In this document: positions 28,547-58,859 of the stretch, piece by piece | Numbering within the stretch: the stretch's first letter is position 1 | How the letters are laid out: the number at the start of each line of letters is the position of its first letter | The notes under the pieces: generated by a model | What the model was told of the DNA's origin: nothing | Database searches by the model: none | What the model saw: only the letters and a program-made list of their open reading frames with translations | Position numbers and translations under genes: made by a program | Source of the DNA: Marsupella aquatica | Lineage: Eukaryota > Plantae > Marchantiophyta | NCBI GenBank assembly: GCA_973895155.1 | Contig: OZ316893.1 | Coordinates: forward strand, 12,974,359-13,038,358 | Length of the DNA: 64,000 nucleotides | Reading direction: 5' to 3'

Positions 28547-28668
28547 GTAACTTAGATTGGGAGACCTGCCGCGACAGTGGATGTCAAAAGGAGATCAACA
28601 AAAACAAGTCAAGAAGTAACAGCAAAAAGATACTTGATTAAGGAAAAGAGGCTGGAACCTCCTAAGTT

Positions 28669-34300: not shown

Positions 34301-37175
34301 AGGTTGAAAAGGATGTGGATAGACAATGGTTCTAACAGGAGAATGCCACCACCCCCATCATTGGAACTGGATCAATGGACACGGTTAATCAAAGGGTTCA
34401 TGTCGGAGGCTGGACAGAGCAAGAGTGAACTGATGTCAAATGCTCGAGGCAAAGTGAAACACCTTTCACAGGTTGGGAGAGGAAGTTATGCTCCACTGAA
34501 AGAACAATTGGTAAGGCAGTGACATGCCTGATAGTAAGCCTCAAACTTATCATCTTGCTACCATTATTACATTTTCATTGACAATCAACACTTGGTTTCA
34601 TTCATATGTATGTTGATGTGGACTGCAAAAGAAATTGACAGGTGAAGAACCATCAGCACAAGAAGTGAGAGAGGAGTTCATGAAACAAAGGAGTGAGGTG
34701 ACAAGTGTGACTTCCAAACAGGTGATTATGTTGTAATTTTGTATGTTCTGTGACTATTTGGCCTTGAGCATCAGAAAGAAATGTAGTAGGAAGTAAGCAA
34801 CCAGTTCTTGGGGACAGTTATCTGAGATATGTAAGTTGTGTTATGACAGGGAACTGTTACAACTCTCACAGAGATGTGTGAACGGTTGAAGTCATTAGAG
34901 TGTGGACTCCCTCGAGTGGAAAGTAAATTGGCTGATCGTTTGGATATTGTGGAGGCATCTGTAGCAAACCTTCTTGCATTAGTGGAATCTAATTTCAAGC
35001 TTGTGATTGAAAAATTGGGTGGTTCCCCCAAACAATGAGGGCAACATTGTACAAAGTGTGCCCTTGTTAACAAAAAAGGGAATTGGCAAATCTGACACAG
35101 GTATGGAAATGACACCGGCCCATTGTTCATTGTGTCCTATGTTCAAATGTTAGAAGTAAGTTTTCATGAATTGAGTGAATGGTTTGAATGCAGGAAGAGT
35201 GGAGGCAGAGAAGGACCCTGTAATCAGTAAACAGAAGGGCAAGAAGGTTGCTGAGATAGGTAACCTGCTATGATCCAGTACATTACATTTGAAAAGTGCA
35301 TGGAGTTTTGTGAAGCTTAAGCCGGTTGGAGGTAATCTTTTCTGTAAGAACTGGTTGGATCAACTGGGATCTGAAGTGTCATCATGATTGATGTATCAGG
35401 TGATTCAAAGAGCAATAATGAAAAAGATGTGCCCAGTGCCTCAGTGACCATAGCCAAGGAGGTACCAGGTAAGTTGATGCTTTAAATTCCTCTATATGAA
35501 TGTTGAGAAACAATTCAGTGGTTAATAGATTCAACTTGAATATTGTGGTGTGTTTATTGATCAGCAGAAGCAGACATGGAGGATATGGCAATGGCAAAGA
35601 AGGGGAAGAAGGCTGTTCATAATGGTAAGGAGATAGTGACAACTTTGTGGTTGGTGATAGTACATTTAGCACATGTGATGGGTGATTGACTTATGTTGGA
35701 CATGACACTAAATTGTAGTTGATGCAGAGTTGACAGACTCTCAACCAAGTGGGAGCAGGGTGAAGCGACGTCGAAACTTGGGAGCAACATTGGATGCAAG
35801 TAAGATTGTAGATGCTTCATTTGAAGCAAGTACAATGTTGGCAGATACTGAGATGATGTCGCAGGAAAATCCTGCTACACAATCGGAAGTGTCAAATATG
35901 GATGCAGATTCTTTGAAGAAGAGTGTAGCCAATTCTCGATCACCAGCACAAAACACTCGTGCCAAAGTCATGACTCGCAACCAAGGTATGAATAATGTCA
36001 TGTATAAGCCACCCAGGAAAGCCAAGAAAAACAGCCAGGGTAAGGTGGAGGTGATAGCCACAGCAGAGCCGGTCCATAATCTTCTATCATGGGAGGATGA
36101 CTCGTAGGTATCTATGGGTACAGGCATTTTGCGACCGGATCATGCTAAATTCCATGGCAAAGTGGTCCCGGATGACCATGTAGTAGTGTTGTTGACTACA
36201 GTGATTGTATCTGATTGTAATTTGCCATTTTCGAATAGAGATGATGATCCACCTCAGGAAATAATTGCAGATGCAGTAGGATCTCTTGTGCTCTGGCCAA
36301 CAGAGTGTGTTAGTCTACAGTGACTGAATGCAAGTGAATCATGTGAATTGTGTCACATTTTGACATTGCCTTGGAAAGATCCAAGAAATATCTGTACCAA
36401 TTTTTCCATTTGGTAAAGAGGATGAAGGAGCCGTTGTGTGTGACATTGATATTTCTGAATTTTGTATGTATGAAACAAGTTATTGATGTCAAACTATGGC
36501 TCTATGGTGATTGTCTATGATACTTGAATCTATTTTGTATCATTTCAGTATTAGTGTGTATGGTATAGAGGAATACTTTGTGACCTTCTTTGTAGTCTAT
36601 GATGTTTGAATCTGTGAATTCATATTAGTGTACATGGTATAAAAGATGGCTTTCTGAAACTCTATGTGTTCTAATGTTAACATGATGAATGGTGAGCTTA
36701 TAGAGTGATTTCATTCCAAGTACACAATAAACATGAATGGAATGTGTTATTTGTGCACAAGAGTGAGTTCATTCCAAGTAGTATAGTGGGGTTCATCACT
36801 CATATCCAGTTGACATGAAAGACTTATACATACCCCACAAAGTGTCTACTTTAGTCGTTTTATAAACCCACAAAGTATATTTAAAGAATACCCTCCATAA
36901 CCTTTTTAGTTGTTCCCAACGATTACCATCGCAGCCCATAAAAGACTGAAAACGACTCACCAAAGTTACCCACACAAAGACTAAAAGAGACTGAAAATCC
37001 AGTCTATTAAACGACTTATAAACTAGTTCTATAAAGGACTCAGTTGATTATAGTAACAAAACATACGACTCGCAGTCCTATAAAGGACTGGAGTCCTTCC
37101 TAGTCGTTTTCAAGTCCTATACGGTACTGAATAGTCGTTTAATGAGGTCTAAATACCCCCCGGTTTCTACTAGTG
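31347..37175 (+). mobile_element. CACTA (En/Spm) non-autonomous DNA transposon, 5829 bp
   Basis: TIR CACTAGTAGAAACCGGGG / CCCCGGTTTCTACTAGTG; 3-bp TSD GTC at 31344-31346 and 37176-37178; subterminal aggact/aagact repeats. Removing it restores the gag Ser-rich tract. Confidence 0.95.
33620..36323 (+). CDS. TnpA/Ptta-like accessory gene of the CACTA element (spliced, probably decayed)
   Basis: GRGG repeats, then RHRLKRMW...PPPSLELDQWTRLIK...KSELMSNARGKV...GRGSY (Transposase_24-like) and a C-terminal FHGKVVPDDHVVV...DAVGSLVLWP domain. Several GT/AG exon borders. No TnpD core seen. Confidence 0.65.
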
Positions 37176-37178
37176 GTC

Positions 37179-39325
37179 TGAGACTTCCTCTTCTGATTCC
37201 AATAGTGACGACTCTTCTAGCACCTCCAGTAGCGACTCAGATGACTCATCTTCGGACTCAGACTCGGATAAGGACATAAAACCTAAGAAGGTGGACACAA
37301 CCAATAAAGCAAAGAAGGAAGTGGAAAAAATGAAAGGAATGTTGTCCTCACTCACTAAGGAAATGAAAAGTCTGTCTGTGAATTTAGCTTCTATAAAAGG
37401 TCCAAGGAAAACACCACCACTTTTAAGACACAATGTTTGGTGTTCCCTTTGTAGAAAGATGGGGCATTATCCCCATGAGTGTCCCACGGCCTCCCGAGTC
37501 AATTATGTCTTCAATGATGAAGGAATGGTAGAAGGGAATTATGAGGACCCTTCTTACCAGACTGTGTTCCCTGAAGTGGCGTATCAAATCCAGACCGGAC
37601 CATCAACTCCCCCTCCTGTTCAATACTTTCCACCGCCACGACAAATCTCCAATTTCAATAGGCCAGTATATAAACCTCCTATGGCACCACCAGGAGGATA
37701 TCCCCCATGAAATCAAATGAATAGGGGTGAGTGTTGGAATTGTGGATCAAAGGATCATTATTCCCCTTCATGCCCATGGCCAAAGAGGGATACGGGGTAT
37801 TCACCAATGTGTGGTAATTGTGGACAAGAAGGGCATCTTCCATTGGAATGTCCCCAACCACCCAAGGCCAAGATGATGGTACGATATGTGAAGGACCCGC
37901 CTGCTGCACCAATAAAAACAGACTCAGCCGTCAGGTTGATTTACCTAGAAGAAGACACAGACCCCCATTTTGAACAATGTCGGCTTGTAGATCAGAGTGA
38001 AGAAGTGACTCCCGACCAGCTTCCAAAAGTGAAGAAATGGCAGGATCTCATATGGTTACAACCGTTGGCGGGTATTACCTATGACCGTGATTGTGAACAT
38101 TTAATAAAAGAGGAAGAAAAAGGACAGCCAAATCTAAGAATGCGCAATAGAGATAGGATCCTGAATATTTTTGCAACCACCAGGTCCAAAAAGACACAAG
38201 AAAAGGAGGAATTACAAAAGAAACCTCGAAAGAAATCTGAAAAGAAGCAAGACAAACCTAAAGGATCGGTAGCTGTGGCGAAGGACAAGGATGATGCAGC
38301 ATATGACCGTTATGACCCTAAGTATTTTCTGCCAGACATTTCAAAGGAAGTAAAGGAGATACTCCAAGAAGAATTAATGGTAGAATCAGCACCAGTAGCA
38401 GAAGGTCCTATTGTAGGAAAGAAGCAAAGTCCTGGTGACAACATCCCTCTTAAGAAAGTTCAATTTGAAGTAGATCCTGTTCGACTAAGAATTGATGGCC
38501 TTCGTTCTCCTTACAATATTGTTGAGGATGTTAGTGGTTTAAAAGCCAACATTACCTTTGGGGAGTTATTGCGCTCCAATCCAAATTTTCGGAAACAAAT
38601 GAAGACTCTAGTTTCTTCTAGGCGAAGATCCTTCAAATTGCCTAGTGTTCACCAGTGTATGCAAATTGAATCAAAGGACTATGGACCTCCAGAAATTGAA
38701 GTTCAAATTGCAGGTTGTGTGATTACCAAGGTACCTGTTGATGGTGGCTCTAGTGTAAATATCATGACACAGGCTATTGCAACAGAGTTGGGATTCCTTA
38801 AGTTTGATCCTACTCCCAAAATGACCAGACCAGAGTGATACCCGCTGGAGCCATAAAAAAGGTGGATACTATAATTGGAGGGCGCAATTTCAAATTAGAT
38901 TATATCATCATTCAACCTAGCACTCCTTCCTTCCCAATTCTTCTTGGACGACCATGGCTGTACATGGCCCAAGTTAAAGTTAATTGGCATGCCAAACAAT
39001 TTTCATTTGGTTCGCCTCGAGTTATCCTAAGTTGGGAAGACAACCCCATCAAGGAGAAACAGAAGAAGATGAGGGGTATACCTCTGAGTCCACCATCACA
39101 TCTTCCGATGGGGAAGAAACACCTTCCAGGAGCAAGAAGTCCAAAGTGCAACTAAAGGAAGAGGATGTAAGATTTTTAGATATTTTTGAGTTTGAAGCAC
39201 CAACATTAAATGAAACCAACGGAGCTAGTTCCCTGGACCACCCAAACTTGCACCATTTAACAAGGGAGACTCAACCCGGACCCGGATTCAATGAGACCCA
39301 AAATCCGGACAAAAGTCCGGATTGA
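37179..39325 (+). pseudogene. gag 3' part (three CCHC zinc knuckles) and aspartic protease
   Basis: CSLCRKMGHYPHEC, CWNCGSKDHYSPSC, CGNCGQEGHLPLEC; VDGGSSVNIM and ILLGRPWL; stops and frameshifts. Confidence 0.9.
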
Positions 39326-39361
39326 CAATTTAAGGACCCAGACCCGGCTCAAAAAGGAGAA

Positions 39362-40936
39362 ATGGAGGACTTCTGGAACTCAAAATCTTCTGAATTTTTT
39401 TCTGAGAATAATGACGGAAGTAAGGCACCTACTGGTAAAATTCTAAGTTCAACTGATGAGTCTGTTGACAATTATAAAGAATTTCAACCTATGGGGTTTA
39501 CGGAGGGGATTGTGGATCCAAAAGCCTGTCAGAAAATTGAAATAGAACCTGGTAAATTCCTTAACATAAGTAAACACATTCAAGGAGATTTGAGGGAGAA
39601 ATACATAGATCTGCTGAGACAATACCGAGACGTGTTTGCCTGGAGCCACAAGGACATCAAGGGAATTCATCCTTATTTGGGACAACACCGAATTGATCTT
39701 CTTGAAGGATCGGTACCAATCTGGCAAAGACAGTATCGACTCAATCCTAAGTACTCCATTATGGTTAAAGAAGAGATAGATAAGCTAACTGAAGCAGGAT
39801 TTATTTTTCCAGTACTCAGCAGCGAATGGGTATCCCCCATTGTCATTGTTCCCAAGAAGTTTGGACCTGATGGCAAGGTCAAGATCCGTGTGTGTCAAGA
39901 TTATCGCAAGCTCAATGCGGTTACCAGGAAAGATCACTACCCCCTACCATTTATTGACCTCGTTTTGGACACAGTAGCCGGTCATGCTCTATTCAGTTTC
40001 CTTGATGGGTATTCAGGATACAACCAAGTTTCCGTGAGGGAGGAAGACAAGGATAAAACCACTTTTACAATAGATTGGGGTACTTATGCTTTTAATGTAA
40101 TGCCGTTTGGATTGTGTAACGCTCCTGGAACATTCCAAAGGATTATGATGATCATATTCCAAGAGTATCTTCATAGATTTCTAGAAATATTTATAGATGA
40201 TTTTTGTGTTTTCTCCTCCGCTGAATCTCATCTTGCAAAGCTAAGACTTACTTTTCAGAAGTGTAGAGAGGCTCAACTTTGTTTACACCCAGATAAGTGT
40301 TTCATTGGGATGCAAGAGGGAATTCTTCTAGGAAATGTAATTTCCCAACAGGGAATCGCAATGGATGCAGAGAAGGTGAGAGTTATTGAAAATCTGAAGC
40401 CGCCCACTAACCTTAGAGAGCTTCGAGGTTTCTTGGGTTATGTAGGTTACTACCGGAGGTTCATCCGCCTTTATGCAGATCTGGCCATGCCCTTAACACA
40501 ACTGCTAAAGAAAGATGTGGAATACCAATGGACAAAGGAGAGACAACACGCCTTCGAGAAACTCAAGAGTAAACTTACTTCCACACCTATCTTAATTCCA
40601 CCTGATTGGAATAAAGATTTCCATGTATACATTGATGCGTCAACATTTTGTATAGGAGCGGTCCTAAGCCAACAAGATGACAATAAGAAGGACCATCCTA
40701 TTTATTATGTCAGCCGACAAATGAATGCGACAGAGAAGAACTATTCAGTAACTGAACGAGAAGCCTTGGGAGTGGTTTTTTCTTGCAAAAAATGCAGGCA
40801 TTACCTCCTGGGAAACCAAAGAAATCTCTCGAGTTATTTCAGCTATGCACACCAAAGAAGCTGGAGGGCATTATGCAGTGAATGTGACTGTCAAGAAGAT
40901 TCAAGCGGCCGGATACTGGTGGCCGACTATGCATAG
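39362..40936 (+). pseudogene. pol: Reverse transcriptase and truncated RNase H
   Basis: SEWVSPIVIVPKK, RVCQDYRKLN, FLDGYSGYNQ, MPFGLCNAPGTFQR, FIDD; RNase H YIDAS...GAVLSQ...NYSVTERE, which breaks off after RHYLLG. Confidence 0.93.
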
Positions 40937-41909
40937 GGACACCTATCAGTATATCAAAGCTTGTGATCCTTGCCAAAGGTATGGTAGACCATCTTCCTCT
41001 TCTCATTGGCCACTAACCCCAATTCTACCATTGGCACCTTTCGAAAAATGGGGAATTGACTTCATAGGCCCTATCCAACCTGCTGCCGCTCGGACATGGG
41101 CTCGATACATTATCTTAGCAACCGACTATGCCACGAAATGGGTTGAAGCTCGAGCGACTAAGAAAAATGATGCAGCAACAGCCGCCAAGTTTCTATTTGA
41201 AGACATCATCACCCGGTTTGGATGCCCATTGGAATTGGTCAGCGATCGAGGTTTGCATTTTCTTAACCAAACTATTCAACATATCACTGACTTATATTTA
41301 ATCAAGCATAGGAAAACAACTCCCTATAATCCCAAAGCAAATGGATTAACGGAGAGGGCAAATGGGCTAATGGGGCAAATCTTAACCAAGATTGTGTCCG
41401 CACACAAAACTGACTGGGACCAAAAACTCCATTCTGCCTTGTGGGCATATCGGACAGCAGAGAAGATCACAACTAAACACACACCTTTTTACTTGGTATA
41501 TGGCTTAGCAAGTATTGTGCCCATTGAGTTTGATCTTCCTACCCACCGAATTAGTTCCATTAATAGATTAAACATCAAAACCAGTCAAGATCTCAGGCTT
41601 GTCGCTTTGGAAAAATTGGAAGAGGATAGATACCTTGCCTTAACCGAAACAAATAAACAACAGCAAATGAGAACTGTTTGTTACAATCGGAAGATGAAGA
41701 AAGTCGATATAGAATCAGGGAATTATGTCTTATTATATGATAATTGGCACATGGTTTTCCCAGGGAAGTTGCATACTCGGTGGTTAGGGCCATACTTGGT
41801 GAAAGAAGTCTTTCCCAATGGATCACTGCAGTTAACAGATTTAGAGGGTGAAGATTTACCTACTAGGGTAAATGGCTCTAGGGTCAAGAAATATCACATG
41901 CCACCTTAA
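40845..41909 (+). CDS. Integrase (HHCC + DDE), no chromodomain
   Basis: H..GGH...CDPCQR; WGIDF, LVSDRG, PKANGLTERAN; GKLHTRWLGPY; VNGSRVKKY. Confidence 0.93.
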   Translation: MHTKEAGGHYAVNVTVKKIQAAGYWWPTMHRDTYQYIKACDPCQRYGRPSSSSHWPLTPILPLAPFEKWGIDFIGPIQPAAARTWARYIILATDYATKWVEARATKKNDAATAAKFLFEDIITRFGCPLELVSDRGLHFLNQTIQHITDLYLIKHRKTTPYNPKANGLTERANGLMGQILTKIVSAHKTDWDQKLHSALWAYRTAEKITTKHTPFYLVYGLASIVPIEFDLPTHRISSINRLNIKTSQDLRLVALEKLEEDRYLALTETNKQQQMRTVCYNRKMKKVDIESGNYVLLYDNWHMVFPGKLHTRWLGPYLVKEVFPNGSLQLTDLEGEDLPTRVNGSRVKKYHMPP

Positions 41910-41950: not shown

Positions 41951-42772
41951 TGTGAGATAAGGATGTTTATGAAAGAAGGGTTAACTAACCATAAATTTTA
42001 GAATTTTTACGTTTAAGATCTCAAATGAGGCTGAAGAGGGACCTGAAGACTACTTTGAAGTGGTATGAGACTTTCAAGCCCATCAGAGGTCAACCCGGAT
42101 TGATATTAGAGAAGGAGAATCGACCTGGAACTTTTTACTATAAGCCATGATGAGATATAAAATTTTATACCGCGACTCTATTGAACAATAGCTGTCCATT
42201 GCCAAAGTTTTTAAAACCATAAGTCAAACACAGGCACGACCAAAGCAGAATCCGGATATAAGGAAGGAGAGTTGATCCGGCCTCTCACACCTCTCAAAGC
42301 CGAACTTAGTAGGTTTTGAGCTCCCGAGCGCATTAGGCTGTTTAAGCAGTAGAGTGAGGAGGCTCTACCCTTTTGGTAGAGGATCTTGGATCCGGATTAT
42401 AGGACCAATCTTGCATTGCATGATGAGAGCCTGGATATGAGGGTACTGACTGATTCGTTGTGAGGGAAATGCCTACTCCACCGCTGGAAGTGAAGGCAGG
42501 AAGTTTTAGATCCTGATCGTGGATACATCAGTTGTGAGAAGGGAGGCTAGGTTGAACCGGACATCACCATTGCAGGACCGATTGAGTCCAGATTTTCCCC
42601 ACGTTAGATGGACCTGCATTGTGGTTGACAAAATCTTGATGAAATTCTTCTGAAATGATTTTTAGTTGATCAGAAACGTTGCTGCCAGGTCGACCCAGAG
42701 ATTTGTACCAGTGGTCGACACCGAAGAGATTGAACATTCTGAAGCCGCATCATTGTCGAGCTCGCCGTAGAG
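41951..42772 (+). repeat. 3' LTR, left segment
   Basis: Near-identical to 21740-22561. Confidence 0.95.
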
Positions 42773-43632
42773 CCTTGGGCCCTCACTCTTAGCATATTAA
42801 GTGAACCCCCCTGAGAACAGAACCCCCCTTGTACCCCTTCTTAATATTTTTATTGTCATTAAAATATCTCTTGTTAGTATAAAAATATTAATTTTCACTG
42901 TTAAATTTGACCCTTTTGTAACTTATAAAAGAGTTTTTTGAGTAATAGAAAACACCCTTGACTTTTTAAAATTATGAATGTCATATAACATGTAAACAAT
43001 TCAAAAACATAGATGGTATTTATACTTGGACACTTGAGAGTGGATCCACTATGCTCAGGTATACTTTTATATAGGTCAATAAAATTAAACCAAATAATAG
43101 TATCTTTGGTTGCTTATAGACCTCATAAAAGTGAACTAAATTAACACTAGAAGGATCTAACAAAGAGAAGATTATGCTCTACTACCCTGGTCAGGAGGAA
43201 TAATGGCATGATTGTATACTAATGCTAAAATAATTTATCCTGAGATTGGGCCTGAGATAAATAGGGCACGCCTTCAACCCTTTGCACCAAATGTTCAGTA
43301 AAGTTCTTGGCAGCTTCTTTTGAACCTGATGCATCAAACCATAGATTAATAGTTGATTTTAGACAATACTCATAACACAAGGAAATCATTACTCAAAAAT
43401 ATGGAAATAGTACCATCAGATTTTCTTTGGCTGTAATTATTACTTAGACATGGTGGGTAATTTTCCTGTCATCTCTGCAATCAAACAATTGATTACAATA
43501 TAAGAGACAATATCAAAATCATATTCAAAGCCTTTCATAGTAATCACATACTTGAAGTCTATTTGGGGAGAACATAATTCGATTTGGCATACATACAATA
43601 ACATTGAAAGTTGCTTACCCTATTGTATAAGA

Positions 43633-46600
43633 TTATTGAATTTTGTTTTTGGCAAAATTATCAAGAGCAACTGCATCATCTGGATGCAATTGAAAAATTC
43701 CTGGACATAGTGGATCCACTGTCAAGTGTACTGTTGATATAATACAGTCCAAATCGATGAATTGTGGATCACACACATTGTAGGCAAATTTATGCCTACT
43801 AGTTCCAATCTGAGAAAACCATTGGAACATAATTTTACATGCCTCCTCACCACCAGGCCTATCAAGCAAATCCAAATCACTTCTTGCTCTGTCCATTTTC
43901 CCACCATATTTTTTGTGTATAGATTGAATTCTGCCTATCCACCACATATATTTTGGTGTCGTACTTGAAGACATTACCACAACTGCACCTTTTGGTCTCT
44001 TCGGATTTGGAAGAGAATCGTCTGGTCTACTGCCACCTCTCTTTCCTCGTCCTTTTCCTCTCACTATTCGTGAAATTGCTTCTGAACTTCTAGTTTCAGG
44101 AGCACTGTATGTATCATCTAGGAATAGTACTCCACAGTCGGAACCTACTGTAACAAACATTGTTTGAGCACCTGCTCTAACATTAGGTTTGTCCACTAAA
44201 TTATTGAAGGAGTGATTTTGCTTTATCCGAGTTAATCTGTCTTTATTGAGGAGAGGGTTGAGGGTCAACTGGCTGACCAAAGTACTTTTGTAAATTGATC
44301 GATTTCGGTATTCTACTATTGGCTTCACATCCTGTTTTGCTGCTCCATATATCAAGTCAGAATGCATGATCCCCATGGTGGCCTCCATTTGAGCAGCAAC
44401 TCCCTCTACATCTGGGTCTGCATATATCAAAAGTTGTTCTATTGGGATAGGAGACTCAGAGTCCTCTTCTGCAACTTCTGTTTGAGCCAATAAGGATGCA
44501 CGCTCATGAGAGGTTGTTTGACCTTCCTCAGATTCCTCCACATCCCGCCCTCCATCTACTAATGTATCAACATTCACATCACACCAACTACCAAACTTGA
44601 CCCCTTTAGCTTCCATCTTCCATGGGGAATTCCACCACACCTTGTCTCTGCAAGATGTGGAAGGGTTCATCTGTAACTCAGTGCACGCATTTTGGGCAAG
44701 TTGGAAACCTTCTTGTAGAGCAATCACTATTTCTTCATTTGTTTCAATCCCTGCATAGTCTATTTGATCTGCTACAATAGGAATCCCTATCGGGATTGTA
44801 GTGAGCATCATCCAAATGTTTTCATGTTTTTAGTGGCTCTTCCCTGCACCCATCATTCCTTCAGCCAGATCCATTGCAGCCAATCGATTTCGATTGGTAG
44901 CACATTCTACTAACTCAGCCAAGTCATAACTTCATTCATGACCATTCATACCTCCTACAGCAGAGAAAAACTGCTCACAAACATCTGACCCAGTCAAATG
45001 CAATGGCACTGGAAGATGTCGAAAATTGTCCCTAAATTGGATTACCAATAGGACCACAAAATGAACTGACATCTGAATGTCAAGGAAGCTTTGCATGGGA
45101 ATGCAATTTTTTGTGAAACTGATTGGTTGTGTATTCCCTCCCACTGAATGGTTTCCATGAAAGCACCATTGACGCCATAGTCTAAAGAAGAACCCAACCT
45201 TCCCACAATGGACAATCCTCTGTCGCAAACTCAGACTAGTGTTCAGAAATATGTCAATGTAGTCTGCACATATCCTAGTGTAAACTTCTGTTCCAAGAGT
45301 CTGTTCAACTCTTGCATCACCACGTTGACGAAGCATCCGTAAGGAGGACTGTACTTTGCGGCTACATAGTCGTTGTGCACTAGCCCAATTTTGCCTATCT
45401 TTCCTTGACTTGTCCTCTTCATTCAAGCCATGATCACTATTCAGGTACAATTTGTAACAGGTTATGATGTGACTGAGGTTCGCCATTTCTGCTCCTAATT
45501 TCAAAATACGAGAAGTGGAATCCAATGGGTTCACTAGCTTCTTCCCATTATGAATAAAGTCTTGATCATGCAACCCATATGCATGGATCAATGGTCCAAC
45601 AGTGGTCATAGAGTGGGTCAATTTCCAAGCTTCCCACCTCAGGTCCTGCCTTGGCCCCGGTATCCCACTTCCAGAGTAGTCTTCCAACATAAGCTTTCTC
45701 CTCCGTGCATCCCCATCGCTAGCATGACCCAATAAGGGTCCCACTGACTCTAGGCAATGTGTAGTCCACAGTGACGCTAGGCTATTCCATTGTCGCCTGA
45801 CCCATGGAGCATCAAACTTGTTACATGTGCCAATCCCCATGATGCATAATCGAGGAAACCCAGCAACAAGTGCATTTACTATCAACATCTTGCCTGGTGC
45901 GCTACAACATAATTGTCAAAGGCATCTGCAATGTTGTTGAAGCCAACTTCTCCTTCCCCCACCAGGATCTCCAAGCCAACACTACACTCATGGTCAATTT
46001 TTGTCCCACAAAATCCAAGAAGGGTGTCATGTTTGGGCAACCATCTGCAATCAATAGCAGGTGGGCTCTTCATTAGTTGTGTTCAATTTTTGTGTGTACC
46101 ACAAAACAATCTTGAGCAAAAAGAATAACCAGAGCAAGAGGAGGAAATGAGTAGTCACCTCACAGTCCTCTTCACACAAGTCTCATCCTCTGCCAAAAAG
46201 CATGGAATGGGTCCTTGTATATTTAATCGAGCTTTCAGTTTGGAAAATATTTCCGCAACAAACTGAAATTGCTCTGCATGAATTCCAGCACGAAACACTG
46301 CCATGCCTCTTCGGTCCCGTTGAAGGGTGTTGATGGTAGGACCAATTCCATTGGTTGCAAGACAATCAACAACTCGCCTTCCACCATGTAAAAATAGTGT
46401 TTGACAAAGGAGCTTGGTTCCCAGCTTAAATCGATATCCTATCTTTTCCCTATTGATGTTTTGTGCTATGTCAGACAACATATCCCATAGAGCTCCTCTC
46501 CCACCAAAGGCACCTCGTTTGTGTGCCAATATTATTGAGTGACAAAATTTCAACACAATTGCTTTGTTTGGTTCCTCATAGTGAAGACACGGCTTCACTA

Positions 46601-48361
46601 ATATTGGGGACTAGAGCCTTTGCCATGAGCAACTTGTGACTCAAGATTCTTTGCAATTTTCGCTCTCTCAAAACTTGGTTCCTGTAACTTTTAGCATGAT
46701 ACTGGACCTCTGGAATAGTCAAGTAATCTAAGCGCCTACCTTTCCCAGTTGTTCTAGAACCTCTTTTCTCAAGAGCTTTGTACTCCCTATAAACCCTGAG
46801 TCGAAAATCCTGCTCTGTTTTTATGCTAAAACACTACGAGCAGGTCAAATCTATAAACCCACCACCAAGTTCTGATATTCGTCTACAATCTTTGTGTCTA
46901 AATAAACCAGAGATCACACAACTTTCCTGAGTTATCAAACACCACACCTCTGCCCTCACTATGGGCTCTGCATACCAGTTGCCATCTAATTTAAGCTGGT
47001 CATTTAAGATCTCCTTGATAGGCCTGGTATCTGAACCATATTTCACCACATCACGCCATAGACCCCAACATAGTAAAGAGAGATTGTCAAGTATACCTTT
47101 GTCTTTTGAACTAGAATTGGAAGCTCCTCCACTTGAGGGGCGAGTTAAGAACCCAACTATTTTTTGTTGTAAACTTGACATCTCTTCCATCTGGCGCACG
47201 AGGTCTTCCAGGCCGACCACTATGCACTGGGTTGCCCCTAGCAGGCCTTTGACTTCTTGTGACATAATTGAGATGACTCAAACCTCCCACATGGGCTTCC
47301 AAATTGGACTCTAGATTGCGTTGTTTTGGAATCAATGTCAGGTTTTCAGCACAAAACTCACAACGAAGCTTGAACTTGGCCAACTCTATAGGCTCTTTGT
47401 CCACATCACCTACTACTGTAAATGTGTCTTGCCCAACAATCCCACCAACAATCTGAGCTGAGTTGATCTTCTCCACAATCTTGACATGTTGATCAAGTAT
47501 GGCTCTATCATCCAGAGTACTAGCTTTAGCTCTCTGAGCAATCTCTCTGTGATCCACTTTCTCACCCCTGTTAGATGCTACACGTCGAGCATGCTTTTTG
47601 GATGGCAAGTGTTTCACTCTGAAGTTTGTAAACACATTATTGACCATAGTTTTATCCACACCCTTCACATTGCTACATGCAACTGCTTGATATCTGTAGT
47701 CACACTCGCAACACTCAATATGCCCACGAGGCACACCATCCTTGTCCCAGGTTCTGACTTTCCATTTGTGGTCCACACACTTAAGAAAAGTCATCCACTC
47801 TCTCAACTTTGTCACAGAAGTTTCCCATGCTATCTTGAGGTCCTGAGACATCAATTCAGACTTTAGGCTGATTTGAGGCTCAACCTCCTGGGATGAGGGT
47901 CCACCTGTAGGCTGGTTCTCTTGGGATGGGGCCCTGGATGGGGCACTCGCAGGCTGGGTCTCTTGGGATGGAGATCCACCTGCAGGCTGGTTAGAGGGTT
48001 CATCTATTGTAGGAGTACCAACTTGGTCTCCACTAGATGTGCTACCAGGTCTATTGGACGCATGGCTGCTTCCAAGAACTTGTTGTGACCCATTCTGCAC
48101 ATCTCCTTGGACAAAATTGTTGGGGTATTTTGGGATAATGACAATCTTTCCACCACAATCCTCTACTAGATTGTACCTCTCAAATTTGTCCAACATTCTA
48201 CAAGCAAGGTTGATGTCCATGAAATGGAACTCAAAGTCAAAACCTGACTCCAAGTTCTTTCTAGCATCATAAAAGGTTTCACCAATCTTGTAGCTATAAG
48301 ATGTCAAGGGTTTACGTTCCCCTGACTCTGAGTCTGCTTGAAAAACAGTGGTAGGCGGCAT
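43633..48361 (-). pseudogene. P-element/THAP9-like DDE transposase with N-terminal zinc fingers; intron(s), frameshifts and stops
   Basis: Successive minus-strand ORFs give CCEC..H..H and CEFC..H..H fingers, GPTINTLQR, LAEDET (D1), HASDGD (D2), QDFIHNGKKLVNPL (DxxH motif), DRQNWASAQRL and GSDVCEQFFS (E). GT-AG intron 46158-46045 joins VR|WLP. Confidence 0.72.
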
Positions 48362-51300
48362 CCTCTGAGTCCCACGTTTAATTCCCTATCCAATTGACAT
48401 ATGCTAAGGGCATAGGCCTGCAAACATAGAACAAGACAAGAGAAAAACACCACAATCAAAATGGACACAATTGGAACACCTCAAAGAGTTATGGGTTACT
48501 TTGTAAGGACCCATTCAATGACAATAGCATGGGCATTTTTGAATTTTTGGCTTCCTACAAGCAGCCTAAGGAAACCCACATGTCAAGACCGCATCCACCA
48601 GACCAATTCCACAAGGGCCTTGCCCCATCCCGGCCATTTCTCGTGGTAATTGGCTTGTCTAAGATCCATTGCAGCTTTCTCCTTTCGGGTGGGAAGGGAC
48701 GTACCCTTTGCATGCAAGGACTCTGGTTTCAGCGTAAGCACAAGAGAGTATGAGATCTACACATGGCCATTTAAGCTTGTCCCAGTTGAGCTTGTCCTAG
48801 TCTGTGCTGGGTCCATGTGTAGTCGGGGCCAGGCCCATCACTCCAATCTCTCTCCTTGACATGTGCAATGGGTTGTTTGGAATTTATTTACTCACAGACT
48901 CGCTCAGAGAGGCTGGACCTTGCTTGAATAGCGACATCCCTTGGACAACCCAAACCCTATGGCTAGGCTCTAAGCAATCCTTACCCCCCCACTTCCAGGC
49001 TACCTGCACCTGCTTCGCCTCCAAGGAGCGCTAGATTGCCAGGGATGAAATCTGGCAAGCTCCACTGAGGGCATTACTTCCCCAGTGGTCTCCTTGGATT
49101 TGATGTACCCTACAAACAATCCTATATCTACAGCAAAAAGACAAAGCATAATTCACAAAACATAATGAAATGCTTACCTGAGCAAACACACAAACCCCTG
49201 TTTGTGAGCAGATTGATAAAAAAGACAACAAGCAGGAATCAATAGTACAAGAGACAACAAGCACGAATAAGCAGCAGTGATTCATCACATACTTGTGTAT
49301 TTGCAATGACTGCTTGAACAAAAACTAGATCCACATTGGAACTCGACCATGATAAGCCTGCTGCAGACAAACAACAATGAGTGAATGGAGATGCACGAAG
49401 CAACAACTAAATTCCTGGACTTTCTTGGCAGTGTAAAAGCTAGCAATGGACAAAACAGAGATAACAAGCAATTAGAAAACATACCTGAAGTATAAAAGTG
49501 CCAACAATAACTCGAACAGGGGTGGCATTCATTGATAGTAACTATTCTTATCTGCAATAAACTTCAAGCCCTACAAATCCACCAATAAAGAGAATCTTAC
49601 AGGATATCAACAGGATATATACCACGGCTAAAGAGCTCACAGGGCAAGAGAAAAATCTACATGGGGTACCTAATATCCCACAACACACTTGATGCACATA
49701 TAGGACGGCAAGACTCAAAATCTACCGATGCAAAATACTAGACAGACTAGCTAGTAGACAATCTAACTTGTCTGAGAATCTGCATGGAGCCTTTCTATCA
49801 TTTCAATGGCATCATAAGGCTTGTCAATCCTCAATAAATGGATATATAGAACAACCACCTACAAGCTTTTTCTGCCTCTGGTTTATCCAGACGGTTGCGA
49901 TCCAACTTGACTCCAACAAAGAAAAGCCCTTAATCTCCTTGTGCAAATCACTGACGCACCAAAGGCAAGAGCAAGGGTGTCCTTTGTTTGCTTACAAAGA
50001 AACCCTCTCCTCCTCCTCTGTAGATGCCAAGCGCTCTTCCCTAGCTGATTCTTGGTCTACATCTCTCCTCTTTGTTCAGCTCTTCTCCTCCGTGGCCTGG
50101 TCACCAGCAACCTCCAACAAACTCCTGCATCCCGTCCTGCATGCCTTCTTGCCTAAGGCAAATCATTCAATGAATCAATAAATCAAAGAATTTCTGAAAG
50201 GCCACATAATGTTTTTGAGCAATTCCTGTACTCTCTGAATAATGCAGTGGGATACTACTATGACAGATTGATAGTATTCTTCAACATGCACTTACAAGAA
50301 CTTAAAGTTGGCAGTAGGGTTGTTGACGCGATTGAGAAGCTGCACGCTATGGTATGCTGTGGTATGCTACCAGAGAATTTGTTGTTTTGTAGGGACCCTG
50401 TGTGCCACTAGAAAGACAATGTAGTCGCATATCACTAACTGAACATCAAATTGTGTAATGATCGGCATAGATTGTAGACCCGATTCTATATGGGAAATCA
50501 ATCTGCATGTAAATGCGTAAGAATGTGACAGAGAACTCAAAAACCACCTTGATCAGCTGGACCTTCAGATCACTCGATCTACAGCACCGTCTGTAGCACT
50601 CCCTTGATGCTAGATCCCACTACTGTAAAGTCCACCAACCTGTACAACACGACAATGTTTATTGGATGTGAGGAAAACAAACACCACCACTTAATGCAAG
50701 CGGTAATGCAAGCCTAAAAAGCTGGCAATAACATCCCACATTGGACAGATGGCGCTAAAGAATGCAAGCCTGAAAATATCACTTGGAATAGTCGCAACTC
50801 AAGAATCATCGCCTACTTAATTTGCCTATCCCTACTAATGCTATGGTTCACTCATCACGTGAAGACGTTTTAATAAGAATGCAACTATGTGACAAGGTGA
50901 GGCGGATCAGATAGAGGTACTTCACGCTAGAAGACAGGGCCAATGCGAATAGGGTGAGATGATTAAAAAGTCCACACGAAGAGAAATGTACCCGGAATGT
51001 ATCTACTCTAGACTGCTAAGACATGGGGCTCGGGGCCGAAGGTTTCTTAGCTGATTGTAGAGGTGAAACCAGGGGCAAAACATTCTGAAGACTAGCCAGT
51101 ACGTGAAGTCATGACCAGGTCCAGTCACATGCACCGGCTCTTAGTTGCAGACCAGCTCACTTCGGCTCCGATCGCATGCACCCAGCTCTTAGTTGCAGAC
51201 CAGCTCACTTCCGCTCCAATCGCCGCTCCAATCCAAGCCTTGCTCCGGGCCGACTCCTATGCTTGAACATTTGGGTCAAAGGTAGCTAGTAGCTCACATC

Positions 51301-52034
51301 TCTAGCTCACTAAAACTCAGCTTCAACCAGTTGGCCATGCTCGAACATTTGTTGATCCACAAAACTTGGCACAATGTCTTCAGCCCTACACTACGGAAGT
51401 TTTCCTGCAGCCCCGCCTACAGCTCACACCTTCAATGCACGTAGGTTGTAGGTCCAACTTCCAGCACCTTGCAGGATAGCAGGAACATTGTACAATCATA
51501 GATCGAACGTCCAGGTTGGCTTCTCCCACTTGAACATTTGAGTTTCAACTAGGTTACACATCACCCCATGCATAAGCACAATTATAGCAAAATGTATGTG
51601 AACACTTTGGTGTCTGTCAGCCAAAGTGAATGTACTTGAGGTGAGGACTGACAATAAGAGGGAGTATCCAAGGTCACATAATGAGATGAGAACTGACAAT
51701 TAGAGGGAGTATCCAAGGTCCATAGTCCTAACTGGTACATGGGCCGGTATGACCTTTTGACCCTTGAGCATTGTAGCTTAGTTCAATGAAAACAGCAAAA
51801 AAGAGTGCTAGGAACTCAAGGAGAAACTTTGTAGTTGGGCTTAGGTTAATTAATGTATCATTAATCATGCACTAGTAAGAGGGCATCAAATTAAAGGGGT
51901 GCACAAGCCCTCCATGTCCCCAAGAGGTTTGACAAGAGTTTGAACGTACTCACCATCTGGCTCCACTCTCCCTCCCACTCTCCCTTGAAACTTAAAATAA
52001 AACAAGTTGTAACTATTTAATGGGGAATATGATA

Positions 52035-52505
52035 GACATGACACAACTTAACCATAACTTGTTTGCCTACAAGTTACTGCACTAAGCCATTCAAGCACAG
52101 GTTCAAGTTCCATTCATTTGTAATAAGAAAACTCAAGTTATCATATTGCGTTACAAACTGCAGTTCTTAAAAGATACTTGCCTTTGCTACGGTCAACAAT
52201 AATCAAGTTTTTTCATAACAAAAAATTGCAACTTACCTGAGCTATTAAGACATGACACAACTTACCATATAATTATATTACAACTTGCAATTCTCTAAAG
52301 ATACTTAACCATAACTTGTTTGCCAACAAGTTACTTCACTAAGTCATTCAAGCACAGGTTCAAGTTCCATTCATTTGTAATAAGAAAACTCAAGTTACCA
52401 TATTGCGTTACAAACTGCAGTTCTTAAAAGATACTTGCCTTTGCTACGGTCAATGATAATCAAGTTTTTTCATAACAAAAAATTGCAACTTAATTACCTG
52501 AGCTA
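52035..52505. repeat. ~210-bp tandem duplication downstream of the dioxygenase ORF
   Basis: gacatgacacaactta...accataacttgtttgcc...ttacctgagcta occurs twice (from ~52035 and ~52249). Confidence 0.9.
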
Positions 52506-52574
52506 CCACTCTACAATGATTAATATAAAGCACAACAATGGATCACATCCAAAATGCAAGCTCAATCAATTTGC

Positions 52575-54080
52575 TTAATCAATGTCCCAATCAATGTATT
52601 TGGGATGAGATTTGGAAGCCATCCCATTTGATAAAATTTTACATAATCCTTGACTTGAAAGTTTGGCTCTCTTAGCATGTGCAAATGCTCTTCCCAACTT
52701 TTGATTTAATGCCAAGGCAACCACATATACTAGATCTATTGTCAAGCTTCTTAATGAAGTCCCATGTCTATCCCTTCCTCTAAAGAAAAATGCATCCCCG
52801 TCAAGAAGTGGCATTTGAATACCATAGTCCATAATAGTGAAATATCCTCTTTTACAATTTCTTGTCAAATTAGAGACATATGCCATTGTCCAAATTGATG
52901 TATCAGCATCTTGGTGCATAGTGTTGCAATAATTTTTACTCAAAAACATAGGGTATCCTGGTACTCCTCTTTCAAAGGCTTTAGTGTTATTGAAACAAGC
53001 TCTAAATTTTTTCTCTAGTCTTAGAAAAGGTTCATTCAAAGAAATAAAATGATCCAAGATAGGAGAAAAATGTCTTCCAAATAAAACAAGCAAAACTTCA
53101 AAAAGTAAACGATGAGAAGTTCTTTCATGCAATTCTTCTAAGCTAGGTCTGCAAAATGGTGATCCATTTGAAAGTTTTTTCATATTTCTATAATAGGTTA
53201 TATTCTCCACCTTGTTTTCTACACGATTGATTAATGGTCCCACTGCTCTCATATTTAGTTTTAAACTACTTCTTTTATCCATGCGAATAACAGGATTCTT
53301 AAAATTAAATTGAACTTCAATACAATCCCTTACAATTGGTCTTGCTTTGAGGTCTAATGCTCCCTTTACACGTCCTCCAATATAAACATTTTCTTGTTTT
53401 GTCACCCAAGGTTCTCTTTCAATCCACAACTCCATTTTTGTAGAATGATGCATAACATAAAAGTTCTCAGGAATAGGTGTCCATAATATAGATGGACATC
53501 TATTTTTAGTTTTTCTCTTATTTTGTTGAAGTGGTTTTTTCAGGTCACTTGATATCAAATATGTCCCATCATAGGATTTACAATTTTCTTCATTTTGTCT
53601 CCCAAACATTTTAATACCTCCATCTTTTTGCAACCGTGGTATTAAAAAAGTATCAAAATGATGCTTTTGAGATTCAAAAAAATTATGTTGATCTTTTCTT
53701 AATTTTGTAATACTTTCTTTCATTCCTCTAGGTAGCAAGTCCAATGCATATCGTGTTTCGAACATAGAGGATAACAATGTCCATATCTCAGTATTATAGA
53801 GTATTTTCCATCTCTTAGCTTTCTTTAGATATTTATATCCTGAAAAAAATTTATTTCGGCATATTGTTTCACATGTGTCATCATAAGTTTGCAAACCATA
53901 ATTAAATAGAAACACTTCATATACTACCCATTTAAGGAATATTTGTAGATTAAAGTAGTCAAATCCCACTATTTTGATAACATCATAAAAATATAGTTCA
54001 CAGTCTCTTAAGTTCAAGTTATTGGATTTGTTGAGTGTGGCCCGGAGTGTGGTTGGGAGTATGACATTCCCTGCAATCAA
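52575..54080 (-). CDS. Protein with a C-terminal TET/JBP-like 2OG-Fe(II) dioxygenase domain
   Basis: 501 open codons in AT-rich DNA. The segment SKNYCNTMHQDAD...GYFTIMDYGIQMPLLDGDAFFFRGRDRHGT shows the N..HxD.D, G.F..DY, GD and HGT pattern of TET/JBP-like DSBH enzymes. An AG acceptor at 54072-54071 suggests an upstream exon. Confidence 0.65.
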   Translation of the reverse strand: MIAGNVILPTTLRATLNKSNNLNLRDCELYFYDVIKIVGFDYFNLQIFLKWVVYEVFLFNYGLQTYDDTCETICRNKFFSGYKYLKKAKRWKILYNTEIWTLLSSMFETRYALDLLPRGMKESITKLRKDQHNFFESQKHHFDTFLIPRLQKDGGIKMFGRQNEENCKSYDGTYLISSDLKKPLQQNKRKTKNRCPSILWTPIPENFYVMHHSTKMELWIEREPWVTKQENVYIGGRVKGALDLKARPIVRDCIEVQFNFKNPVIRMDKRSSLKLNMRAVGPLINRVENKVENITYYRNMKKLSNGSPFCRPSLEELHERTSHRLLFEVLLVLFGRHFSPILDHFISLNEPFLRLEKKFRACFNNTKAFERGVPGYPMFLSKNYCNTMHQDADTSIWTMAYVSNLTRNCKRGYFTIMDYGIQMPLLDGDAFFFRGRDRHGTSLRSLTIDLVYVVALALNQKLGRAFAHAKRAKLSSQGLCKILSNGMASKSHPKYIDWDID

Positions 54081-54139
54081 TCATCGAGTCAATAACACTA
54101 ACATACAATATTTGTTTTACATACAATCAGGCATAAATC

Positions 54140-54616
54140 CTACATGAAATATTTGCATAGAGGGAAATCCCCATCCCAAACATGAAGTCCATATGTACAT
54201 CCCAAATCAAAATTTTCATACAAATTAATAATCTTTGTCACTGTTCTTGGTAAAGTTGTGCTACACATACCCTTGCTCCCATCTTTAGTTTTTGAAATCA
54301 CTCCTCTGTCCCCTGCTCTTGCTCTATTCTCTTCCTTGTTTTTTTTCCTTGGCTGGAACGGTTTCTTGATGTCTTGCTCAAACTTTCGTTTTGAGTTTCT
54401 TGACAGAATTTGTTGAAGCTTGCCCTCTTGCTGGCCATAAACCGGACCATCTTCATGCGAACGGTTAACCTTGGGATTAAACTGATCCATGAACTCGTGC
54501 ATGTGCAATTCTTTTTCTACTCTCCTTACCACAACACGTTCTTTTGGACCAAAAAAAGTACCAAAGGTGGAGTCATTTGGTAGATGCTTCATCTTCTGCT
54601 TCATCTTATTCTCCAT
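54140..54616 (-). CDS. Basic 158-aa ORF, probable upstream exon of the dioxygenase gene
   Basis: Same strand, ends ~70 bp before the acceptor; Lys/Arg clusters (NSKRKF, PRKKNK) resemble a nuclear localisation signal. No canonical GT donor identified. Confidence 0.4.
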   Translation of the reverse strand: MENKMKQKMKHLPNDSTFGTFFGPKERVVVRRVEKELHMHEFMDQFNPKVNRSHEDGPVYGQQEGKLQQILSRNSKRKFEQDIKKPFQPRKKNKEENRARAGDRGVISKTKDGSKGMCSTTLPRTVTKIINLYENFDLGCTYGLHVWDGDFPLCKYFM

Positions 54617-56102
54617 CCTTACTACTTACAATTAGGTAACACTTTTCTGCAAAAAAAACAATACCCTCATTCTTAGATCCTACCCAACAAAACATCCCAC
54701 AAAACATTTTAAACATATTTAAGGGCCAGGTCAGATCAAAGAGCACTGCCATGTTCATTGCCAGCAAATAACAAGAACTAGAACAAAACAAATAGCGTTG
54801 GGGATGACACTATGCTAAACTGTAAAGTAAGTGGGAAACGGGGTGGGAAAGTAAGCAAGACCCACAAAAAATTGTATTTGCAACCCAATTCAATCTTCAA
54901 TGGCAATACTTATGGGCCCAACAAGCTAGATAATATCATAGAGGGAATTGATACTTTTTATCTAATAAATGACAATATGACAAGGCCCCAGTCAAGGCCC
55001 CAGTCAGGGCTGTGAATGTAAATTTCCTGCATCTGGAATTAATATGGAGAAGCAAGCTGGAGACGCCTTACTATAAAAATAATGCAATTTTTTCATTTTA
55101 CTATGAATAGGCTGTCATGTTGCAATATAGCATGGGAGAAGAGAGCGGGAACATGAGGAGTAATACACATCATCAAAGCAGGCACAAGAGTGAAGAGTAC
55201 CATCATAAAACCCAGGTTGCATCCAACCTGTGCGTACTCATCACATTGCTTTGCCGTGGAAAGCACTGACCAAGTTCACACATTCATGTGTTGTGCAGTT
55301 TCAAACTCCTGCGTGTAGAGAGCCAGACTGAGCAAGCACCTGAGTACATCAACTAGTGGGGCGCGCATGCAACAATTCAAACTACCGGACAGGATGCAGA
55401 GCCGCGCCAAGAGCAAGTAGGAACTTGACGCAATAGTTTGCACGCATAGAGTAAGGCCCTTGAGTAAGCACCTTCAAGAACGCTCTGTCTCACTTCCCAC
55501 ATTAGCATCGCTGATAGGAAAATGGGAAGGTAGGAAATCTGCTTGAAGAAGCACTTTGCTCACATCTCTTCCGTTACATCGCTGAAATGTATAGATTTGG
55601 GAGCCTTTATTGATTTTGCCTCTACCTACTTTGGCAATTTCTAGTCCAGCCTACTACATCAATCGTCACCAACACCGGACCTGTACTGCCTACCGACATT
55701 GGACTTGTCCCCGCCACCAACATCGGCCTTGGTGACCCATGACTGTGGACCAACCCGGGGACCAATCCTGCATCCCATTTTTGGACCTCCTCAGTCCTCA
55801 CCAAACCTTCATGGCTGTTTTCACCGACTTGTAGACTTTTAGTTTGACAATTTCTTGACTGTTCTTCACCGACTAGTGTGGGTGCTGGTTGTTGGCAACT
55901 ACAAGTTACTGCGCTCTCTGTCGTTTCCTCATCGTTCATCATGATGATCTTATTCCCAATCTATTATGTTGGCGGAGGAAATAGTCTTGCTCTCATTTAC
56001 TCATAGTTTTTCACACTAGATCTTATTTTTGATCTTATGCAGCTGGCGGAGGGAATAGTCTTGGGGCCAGATGTCTTTGATTAGAGGACAAAAGGATCGT
56101 CG

Positions 56103-56501
56103 TTGTTTTTTATTCTTTGCACCATTCGTGGTCTTTGCACAATTGGTTGTCAGCCGCCTGGTCAGCCGATCAATAAGGACGGCACACCAAATGGAAATGG
56201 ACTCATCCTGGCCAACGCTACATGGCAATTTGATGACTTCAATTTTGACAATGATAGGAATGTGTATTTGGTCAATGCTGCAAGTGGCAACTTGATACTG
56301 AGGGTCTCGCCCGACGAAAGTCATCAGCAAATCATTGCCGGAGACATGAACTCAACCCTGATTGCGCAACCAACTTCTGTCACATTTTGGAGGGGGCCAT
56401 GTGACCAAAACACTCTGTACGTGACTTCTGCAGGAGGGTTGCTTGCATCGATTAATGGATCCATCATCGATGGCGGTCAGGTTATGGCAATGAGAGAATG
56501 A
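56103..56501 (+). pseudogene. Captured C-terminal fragment of an SMP-30/gluconolactonase-like beta-propeller, fungal type
   Basis: PINKDGTP..G...FDDFNFD...IIAGDMNSTLIAQPTSVTFWRG..D..TLYVTSAGG...INGS...GGQVMA matches the C-terminus of secreted ascomycete propeller proteins as I recall them. Confidence 0.6.
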
Positions 56502-56503
56502 TG

Positions 56504-58754: not shown

Positions 58755-58859
58755 ATTGACTTGACAAAAGGGGGCCCTGGAACCTACCGCCTGCATCTCA
58801 ATGGATCAGAGGTTGAAGCCAAACTTCAAAGTATTCGTGATGGTGGACTCCTTGTGTAG
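58755..58859 (+). pseudogene. Captured single exon of eukaryotic acetyl-CoA carboxylase
   Basis: AG|IDLTKGGPGTYRLHLNGSEVEAKLQSIRDGGLLV*|GT corresponds to the plant ACC1 segment just before the biotin-carrier domain. The last codon is TAG, probably from CAG. Confidence 0.8.

Follow-up and report, generated by a model that had tools for sequence, protein, structure and literature searches.

The window analysed here, a 64,000-nt stretch of the liverwort Marsupella aquatica (contig OZ316893.1, positions 12,974,359 to 13,038,358, forward strand), contains between its positions 42773 and 61694 what is very probably a decayed cut-and-paste transposon that, with a THAP-less transposase of predicted P fold from a clade likely inherited in land plants, moved as one 18.9-kb unit with a likely TET/JBP-related cargo. 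A first-pass annotation of the same DNA had described a P-related transposase at 43633-48361. It missed the true 18.9-kb extent and the cargo, and also that this transposase copy is a pseudogene.

The ends of the element were located by comparing the window with itself: it contains two copies of a long terminal repeat (LTR), one of them split by the insertion. The whole 18,922-bp unit represents one jump into the 3′ LTR of a Gypsy element, and is bounded by short terminal inverted repeats (TIRs) and an 8-bp target site duplication (TSD):

42765-42772, no strand: left 8-bp TSD, CCGTAGAG, which occurs once in the twin LTR, at the unoccupied site 22554-22561
42773-42797, plus strand: left TIR, with 12 of its first 13 bases matching the right end and an imperfect match to about 25 bp, fitting the terminus pattern of the family (below)
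42801-42830, minus strand: two subterminal G-run motifs, the first of which (42801-42815) resembles a second type of family TIR (that of L004 and a miniature element, below) and faces outward; summed depth is high at 42820
61400-61694, minus strand: right terminal region common to several copies, ending in the right TIR (61670-61694), with contigs exiting at 61694
61695-61702, no strand: right 8-bp TSD, CCGTAGAG, from comparison of the LTR junctions

The G-run motifs are possible transposase-binding sites. There are two candidate TIR pairs around the transposase gene, and the pair at 42773/61694 is the only one with an exact TSD. An 8-bp TSD had been noted in the first-pass annotation, and it is real, but its two copies lie far outside the interval 43633-48361 to which it was assigned. 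Among the contigs listed for two runs of related samples (X1 and X2), three in each run exit at exactly 61694 into unlike flanks, so this terminus is common to several copies; no contig of this kind is among those listed for runs X3 and X4. A 9-bp reading of the duplication was considered and rejected, since 61694 is where other copies terminate and the TIRs come into register only if the duplication is 8 bp long. The LTR pair has diverged by 2.1-3.0%, which sets a maximum age for the last jump. The Gypsy retrotransposon itself occupies 21740-64000, with LTRs at about 21740-28030 and from 41950 to the end of the window, and gag and pol at 30112-41909.

Depth along the element, given here as summed contig depth rather than copy number, is uneven. 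In X1 it is 170-560 over 43504-49515 and 470 at the right end, and 41-123 across the interior; because of this low depth, the interior is marked as low-copy. Both transitions are bridged by contigs, that at 49.6 kb by X4 (49452-50946) and that at 61.4 kb by X1 (60911-61650). An Rfam search of the element gave no match.

The transposase gene is a single long reading frame, interrupted, running on the minus strand from 48361 to 43633. Its main features, and those of its immediate surroundings, are:

43633-48361, minus strand: P-fold DDE transposase pseudogene, about 1,530 codons with three frameshifts and three premature stops
47273-47713, minus strand: two C-x2-C...H-x5-H zinc-finger-like motifs, from comparison of N-termini
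46185-46187, minus strand: putative first catalytic Asp (AEDET), from motif and alignment column
46045-46158, minus strand: spliceosomal intron, 114 nt, GT..AG, phase 2, from the frame and comparison of loci
45715-45717, minus strand: putative second catalytic Asp (SDGD), from motif and alignment column
45550-45561, minus strand: DxxH motif, where the predicted helical insertion domain begins, from motif and alignment column
44974-44976, minus strand: putative catalytic Glu (SDVCEQFF), from motif and alignment column
43636-44310, minus strand: conserved C-terminal region, predicted to be beta-rich
48362-49640, minus strand: upstream region common to several copies, with candidate 5′ untranslated region splice sites at 48418, 49177, 49361, and 49484, from sequence only
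43030-43062, no strand: 33 bp from the 3′ coding part of the transposase, repeated in inverted orientation in a copy-specific stretch (low-depth contig 42823-43469)

The frame matches a 1,529-aa protein of Calypogeia fissa (P0003) in four collinear tblastn segments covering its residues 1-1528, with identities of 44, 54, 60, and 56%; its motifs are therefore not a matter of chance. These follow each other on the minus strand as AEDET (from 46193), SDGD (45720), DQDFIHNGKKLVN (45567), DRQNWASAQRL (45399), and SDVCEQFF (44988). In a 111-row family alignment the first Asp is conserved in 100% of 92 rows, the second in 96% of 108, the His in 99% of 111, and the Glu in 100% of 102. Three residues ahead of the catalytic Glu, 89% of 103 rows have an Asp that, by its spacing, would correspond to D528; it is a candidate residue for binding GTP, which the Drosophila transposase needs. 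The frameshifts lie near 47171, 46591, and 45884, and the stops at 46834, 44932, and 44830. In each of the four runs of related samples (X1-X4), contigs are free of the stop at 44932, and in many of them the four additional bases at 47171 are missing too, so less damaged copies of the transposase exist.

At the N-terminus, seven of the eight finger ligands are kept in all 15 aligned sequences and the eighth in 12 of them, and the family has an extra Cys module ahead of the coiled coil. A THAP pattern was found in none of 20 N-termini, and the Pfam THAP model in neither the window pieces nor 64 homologues. The intron is found at the same position in one related locus (L001), and is absent from the other nine of the ten loci that cover this junction. 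The first-pass annotation had listed the same motifs in the same order, the two C2H2-like fingers without a clear THAP domain, the spliceosomal intron, and the long extra C-terminus, and all of these stand. The C-terminal domain looks BAH-like, but Pfam and PDB sequence searches yielded nothing credible for it, and it is assigned to no family. More distant family members (P0043, P0048, P0154, P0170) end in Tudor (PF21743), SAP, or C1 domains, which suggests that chromatin- or DNA-binding modules have been gained repeatedly at the C-termini of this family. Upstream of the gene, 48586-49134 is a repeat of higher depth, with many loose contig ends at 48586 and a 120-bp back-jump; it is possibly a small inserted element.

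The fold was examined on an AlphaFold model of an intact relative, P0013 (predicted local distance difference test score, pLDDT, 85.5). Its best structural match is the Drosophila P transposase (6p5a), with Z 23.8 and a root-mean-square deviation (rmsd) of 3.3 Å over 409/442 residues; Foldseek gives E 1.4e-11 for the same comparison. The next matches are Transib (Z 9.3), RAG1 (9.1), the Mutator-like ISCth4 (8.5), and the hAT transposase Hermes (8.5, rmsd 7.9). The match spans P residues 137-569, a stretch that can be read as predicted helix-turn-helix (HTH), split RNase H, and GTP-binding insertion domains (as described in PMC7776569). Sequence identity between the model and P is about 15%. 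In the ESM Atlas the nearest neighbors are two unnamed, Basidiomycota-rich clusters at 0.97, followed by P/THAP9 clusters at 0.87-0.96. The order D, D, DxxH, E is a P signature and is present in this transposase; of the 7-8 bp TSD and the TIRs expected for the P superfamily, the element has an 8-bp TSD and short TIRs. The relationship to P elements proposed in the first-pass annotation is thus supported by the structural match, the Foldseek score, and the nearby P/THAP9 clusters. Since THAP is absent, the family is not placed in the animal P/THAP9 family; this absence, together with sequence profiles that barely link it to P, makes it on the model's evidence a predicted separate P-fold clade. 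The clade is a real, under-described variant of a known superfamily.

Of the established plant superfamilies, to which profile hits had been named beforehand as the outcome that would speak against P, hAT and Mutator fit less well. The hAT, Mutator, KDZ, and CxC Pfam domains were found in neither the window pieces nor the 64 homologues (we take KDZ and CxC models to be present in the library). A hAT identity was rejected on this absence and on the weak match to Hermes; the 8-bp TSD is the only shared trait. Mutator and IS256 transposases have a MULE domain, long TIRs, and a 9-bp TSD; this identity was likewise rejected, with no Pfam match, the low ISCth4 score, and a TSD fixed at 8 bp. Kolobok elements duplicate a TTAA target; as judged by target site alone, the three different 8-bp, non-TTAA TSDs found here argue against this identity. 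Zisupton elements also generate 8-bp TSDs (PMC12730594).

Related loci are informative about the family termini. Of 37 such metagenome loci compared, L004 contains a whole element of 6,096 bp, which is bounded by TIRs and an exact 8-bp TSD and whose frame of 1,520 codons is open. Three others (L009-L011) have a common right end with three different flanks. A terminus pattern, C[CT][CT][GT]GGG-n4-CAC, occurs 10 times in eight of the 37 loci, against 1.2 expected, and just once in the window, at 42773, against 0.3 expected (descriptive counts). The distance from the gene end to the left TIR is 860 bp in the window and 934 bp in L004. The window also holds a miniature inverted-repeat transposable element (MITE):

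9885-10171, no strand: 287-bp MITE with L004-type termini and an 8-bp TSD, AGCATGAT, from a terminus and TSD scan

The MITE is likely a non-autonomous member of the same clade; it, L004, and the window element each have an exact 8-bp TSD. Complete relatives of 6-9 kb and the MITE share related termini of 14 bp. In L003, a second, unassigned frame of 174 codons (7003-7524) lies between TIRs 8.8 kb apart, so that other family members also carry additional DNA. In L007 a family terminus (at 5593) directly adjoins a leucine-rich repeat (LRR) gene, and may mark an insertion into a disease-resistance-like gene.

The transposase core has 1,077 relatives at 50% clustering. The named ones come from Calypogeia fissa, Riccia sorocarpa, R. 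fluitans, Adiantum nelumboides, and the corals Desmophyllum pertusum and Oculina patagonica; no seed plant is among them, most relatives being without a name. None were found in IMG/VR, GTDB genomes, plasmids, or BFVD (E 0.001). Trees were built under LG+G4, without a root or a P/THAP9 outgroup sequence: one of 95 rows (82 of the 111 alignment rows, with all four catalytic columns, plus 12 added rows and the window) and one of 38 of those 95. The 38-row tree pairs the window with Calypogeia as sisters (100/100), joined successively by Riccia (99/97) and by an unlabelled clade (98/97). This group joins Adiantum and two loci with 100/100 support and a stem of 0.45. The coral row falls outside the land-plant clade, and the same groups appear in a quick tree of the 95 rows. 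Neighboring genes include a cellulose synthase gene beside a locus of the fern-side family, and an LRR gene beside a locus of the unlabelled clade. The pattern likely reflects inheritance within land plants; because the tree is unrooted, it would also fit a transfer long ago into the stem of the land plants. The first-pass description of a "bryophyte lineage" was too narrow, as ferns belong to the same clade and corals and unlabelled clades are related.

The interior of the element consists of low-copy DNA that holds one gene model and fragments of other genes:

49640-61400, no strand: low-copy internal cargo of about 11.8 kb, from summed contig depth
52575-54616, minus strand: TET/JBP-like dioxygenase gene model, exons 54616-54271 and 54070-52575, with a 200-nt GT..AG intron
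56655-57122, minus strand: fragment of a glycoside hydrolase family 3 (GH3) gene (Pfam E 9.3e-10); related contigs skip about 750-880 bp here
56085-56501, plus strand: fragment with a weak resemblance to an SMP-30/gluconolactonase propeller (Pfam E 0.059, which does not reach the cut-off)

The TET/JBP-like model has 613 codons without a stop, and the 501-codon frame of its main exon compares with a maximum of 185 in 2,000 shuffles. Its putative iron-binding triad HxD...H (H389, D391, and H439 of the open frame) lies with HxD at 52916 and the distal His at 52766, 50 residues apart as compared with 52 in CMD1 (PMC7854593). The Tet-like Pfam model PF20515 scores E 0.006 and 17 bits, below its cut-off of 27. 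In the ESM Atlas, 24 of 30 matches are Tet_JBP, at 0.96 and mostly from phage clusters, with a recognition value (1635) in the weak range. A single-sequence fold was unusable (pLDDT 32). No homologue was found by a word-index search or in PDB, PHROGs, phages, or IMG/VR, and the 37 related loci, which are mostly short, gave no TET-like match either. By spacing only, no co-substrate-binding Arg is present at +10 to +15 after H439 (positions from PMC7854593); because this distal 2-oxoglutarate-binding residue is missing, the sequence is filed as likely TET/JBP-like, not as a canonical TET. The main exon is AT-rich, with a third-position GC content of 0.25, and depleted in CHG sites (z -3.3, with seven other frames at -1.7 to +0.8), which would be consistent with long residence in methylated DNA. 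Similar AT-rich or CHG-depleted stretches occur at 10000-16000 and 26000-29000. Just downstream of the TET-like stop, 52046-52505 is a tandem duplication of about 200 bp (95%), with splice-donor-like sites inside.

As a passenger, the cargo is most likely of Pack type or composite, and peculiar to this copy. That the TET/JBP-like gene is instead a functional part of the element family, oxidizing 5-methylcytosine to escape silencing as has been proposed for fungal TET-carrying transposons (PMC12730594), we consider unlikely. Its position is suggestive: it sits inside the TIRs, on the upstream side of the transposase, and reads the same way. Also suggestive are its 501-codon frame, well beyond the shuffle maximum, its 613-codon model, unbroken while the transposase has six breaks, the predominance of Tet_JBP among its Atlas matches, and a CHG depletion that is significant only in this exon among the frames tested. 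However, its depth is at the level of copy-specific DNA, far below that of the transposase; it has neither a match in the related loci (most of them short) nor a homologue; the Pfam score and the Atlas recognition are weak, the single-sequence fold is unusable, and the distal Arg is missing. Nor is an unbroken 1.8 kb rare at the break rate of the transposase (an estimated 3 or so would be expected). A bolder version, in which land plants host an ancient THAP-less P branch whose liverwort member carries a working TET/JBP dioxygenase against methylation silencing, possibly with a co-substrate other than 2-oxoglutarate, appears rather unlikely; if true, TET-carrying transposons would be known for the first time from beyond the fungi, and a land plant would have a base-modifying activity of the TET type. 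As to the unit itself, the transposase might come from a 6-7 kb element that has lost its ends and is now nested, as a passenger, within an unrelated non-autonomous element of 19 kb that also makes 8-bp duplications, such as one of hAT type. This would explain why the higher-depth part is limited to about 43450-49640, with low-depth DNA on both sides, why an outward L004-type TIR motif lies at 42801-42815, and why the MITE in the window has an L004-type terminus rather than that of 42773. We nevertheless regard it as quite improbable: no pair of TIRs with a TSD surrounds a shorter unit, the end at 42773 fits the 14-bp pattern of the relatives' termini, and the gene lies about as far from the left TIR as in L004.

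Classification is open to a similar challenge, since the clade could be a separate superfamily, or a named one without a known structure (Novosib, or a branch of Kolobok), that shares the P fold. Identity to P is low and the family profile does not match P in the PDB; THAP is missing, the termini begin CC or CT, the Cys module and C-terminal domain are its own, and the clade is large, with 1,077 clusters at 50% identity. Repbase takes sequence convergence in PSI-BLAST as its criterion for membership in a superfamily (PMC4455052). Against a separate superfamily, the structural match extends over the HTH, the RNase H, and the insertion domain in full, and its Z exceeds that of the next family by 14; four homologues match P-derived Pfam models, one of them above cut-off; and the TSD is of 8 bp as in P (PMC7776569). 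A separate superfamily thus seems an unlikely reading. A recent horizontal transfer into a bryophyte lineage from fungi, algae, or animals is highly improbable. Corals (Desmophyllum, Oculina) do have related clades, the clusters closest in the Atlas are rich in Basidiomycota, and seed-plant names are missing among the named matches; but a single clade with good support and a long stem unites the rows from liverworts and ferns, the liverwort rows stand together, and identity to non-plant rows is only about 25-38%. For the horizontal acquisition suggested in the first-pass annotation there is no positive evidence: liverworts and the unlabelled clade group with ferns, and the database searches above turned up no prokaryotic, plasmid, or viral relative. 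Several points weigh against a decayed 18.9-kb P-fold element inherited in land plants, which we nonetheless prefer. The model is of P0013 (43% identical to P0003), not of the window gene; a Pfam search of the window pieces gave no match, and among homologues weak P-derived Pfam matches were seen in only 2 of 16 and 2 of 48, one above its cut-off. The 111-row family profile did not find P transposase in PDB at E 10, and the fold lists hold no Kolobok, Novosib, or KDZ structures, so that the Z ranking does not extend to those families. The perfect 14-bp TIRs of L003, 8.8 kb apart, have no matching TSD; the terminus pattern was derived from the same sequences that were scored; the tree is unrooted, with most rows lacking an organism name; and a second copy with this transposase subfamily between these exact TIRs was not seen.

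For the 18.9-kb P-fold element, a sequence of events can be proposed. With THAP absent, recognition of the termini would fall to the C2H2 fingers, the Cys module, and the HTH, and an oligomer of the transposase would pair the ends and excise the element. The D/D/E residues would then join it to target strands 8 bp apart, repair giving the TSD. The last jump followed formation of the LTR pair (now 2-3% diverged), and would have been driven by this gene before its decay or in trans by a less damaged copy. The interior might have been captured by Pack-type filling or by the pairing of two nearby ends.

Much of this resembles Drosophila P (6P5A/6PE2) and THAP9/Pdre: the predicted HTH, split RNase H, and helical insertion, and the D/D/E with DxxH. 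Short TIRs, the 8-bp TSD, and internally deleted derivatives are also shared with P (PMC7776569), as are introns gained in single branches (PMC3698922). Unlike P, the family has two C2H2 fingers and a Cys module in place of THAP, about 1,500 aa as compared with 751, an extra C-terminal domain, land-plant hosts, and only some 15% identity. The termini differ as well: those of the window family follow C[CT][CT][GT]GGG..CAC, while P element termini begin CA.

The cargo can be compared with the Pack-MULE and Pack-CACTA elements, in having terminal regions common to copies and a variable interior with host gene fragments (GH3, propeller); it differs in the transposase superfamily, the short TIRs, and a cargo that includes a whole, unbroken gene model. 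Pack-MULE and Pack-CACTA are known cargo elements, and VANDAL elements are known for anti-silencing. The latter activity is also cited in PMC12730594, where Kojima (2025) describes TET genes in 11 fungal transposon lineages, in the part available none of them P and none from plants; carriers named are Kyakuja, Dileera, Zisupton, hAT7, IS3EU, PHISTA, EnSpm, ESTA, Plavaka, and Helitron. As in some fungal hAT7 families, the TET-like gene lies in a TIR element, upstream of the transposase and in the same orientation, and as in the fungal PE type, its likeness to solved TETs is very weak (PMC12730594). Unlike the fungal cases it has a land-plant host and a P-like carrier, is seen in one copy only rather than in a multi-copy family, and has HxD rather than HxE, with the distal Arg missing (PMC12730594). 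With the TET/JBP proteins at large (CMD1, NgTET1, phage Tet_JBP clusters) it shares HxD, a distal His 50 residues on, and Atlas features that match Tet_JBP; it differs in having no alignable homologue and no Arg at +10 to +15 after that His.

The first-pass annotation had called this lineage poorly described. In agreement with this, a full-text literature search, with most subscription papers, Repbase, and Dfam outside its scope, turned up TET-carrying transposons from fungi only, and neither land-plant P elements nor plant transposons with a TET gene. P elements are known from Chlamydomonas. They are regarded as belonging mainly to animals and protists; P-like elements have been listed from Trichomonas, dipterans, Ciona, and vertebrates (PMC3698922), and the part available of PMC7466625 does not mention P elements in Physcomitrium.

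Two other features of the window lie outside the element. A CACTA-type element (31347-37175; TIR CACTAGTAGAAACC, 3-bp duplication GTC) with a 311-codon frame (33587-34522) is nested in the Gypsy element. A DExH/DSHCT RNA helicase gene that resembles plant ISE2 occupies 4441-7884 (minus strand) as two long frames with hardly any introns.

As this P-fold clade is missed by standard profiles and occurs in liverworts, ferns, and corals, the annotation of early land-plant transposons is likely to lack a whole class. The clade is also a natural test of the need for THAP and GTP in P-type transposition, for which intact copies such as L004 exist, and it is able to mobilize 19 kb of cargo. Should the TET-like passenger prove active, the arms race seen in fungal TET transposons would extend to plants, and bryophytes would have a candidate oxidative DNA-modification enzyme.

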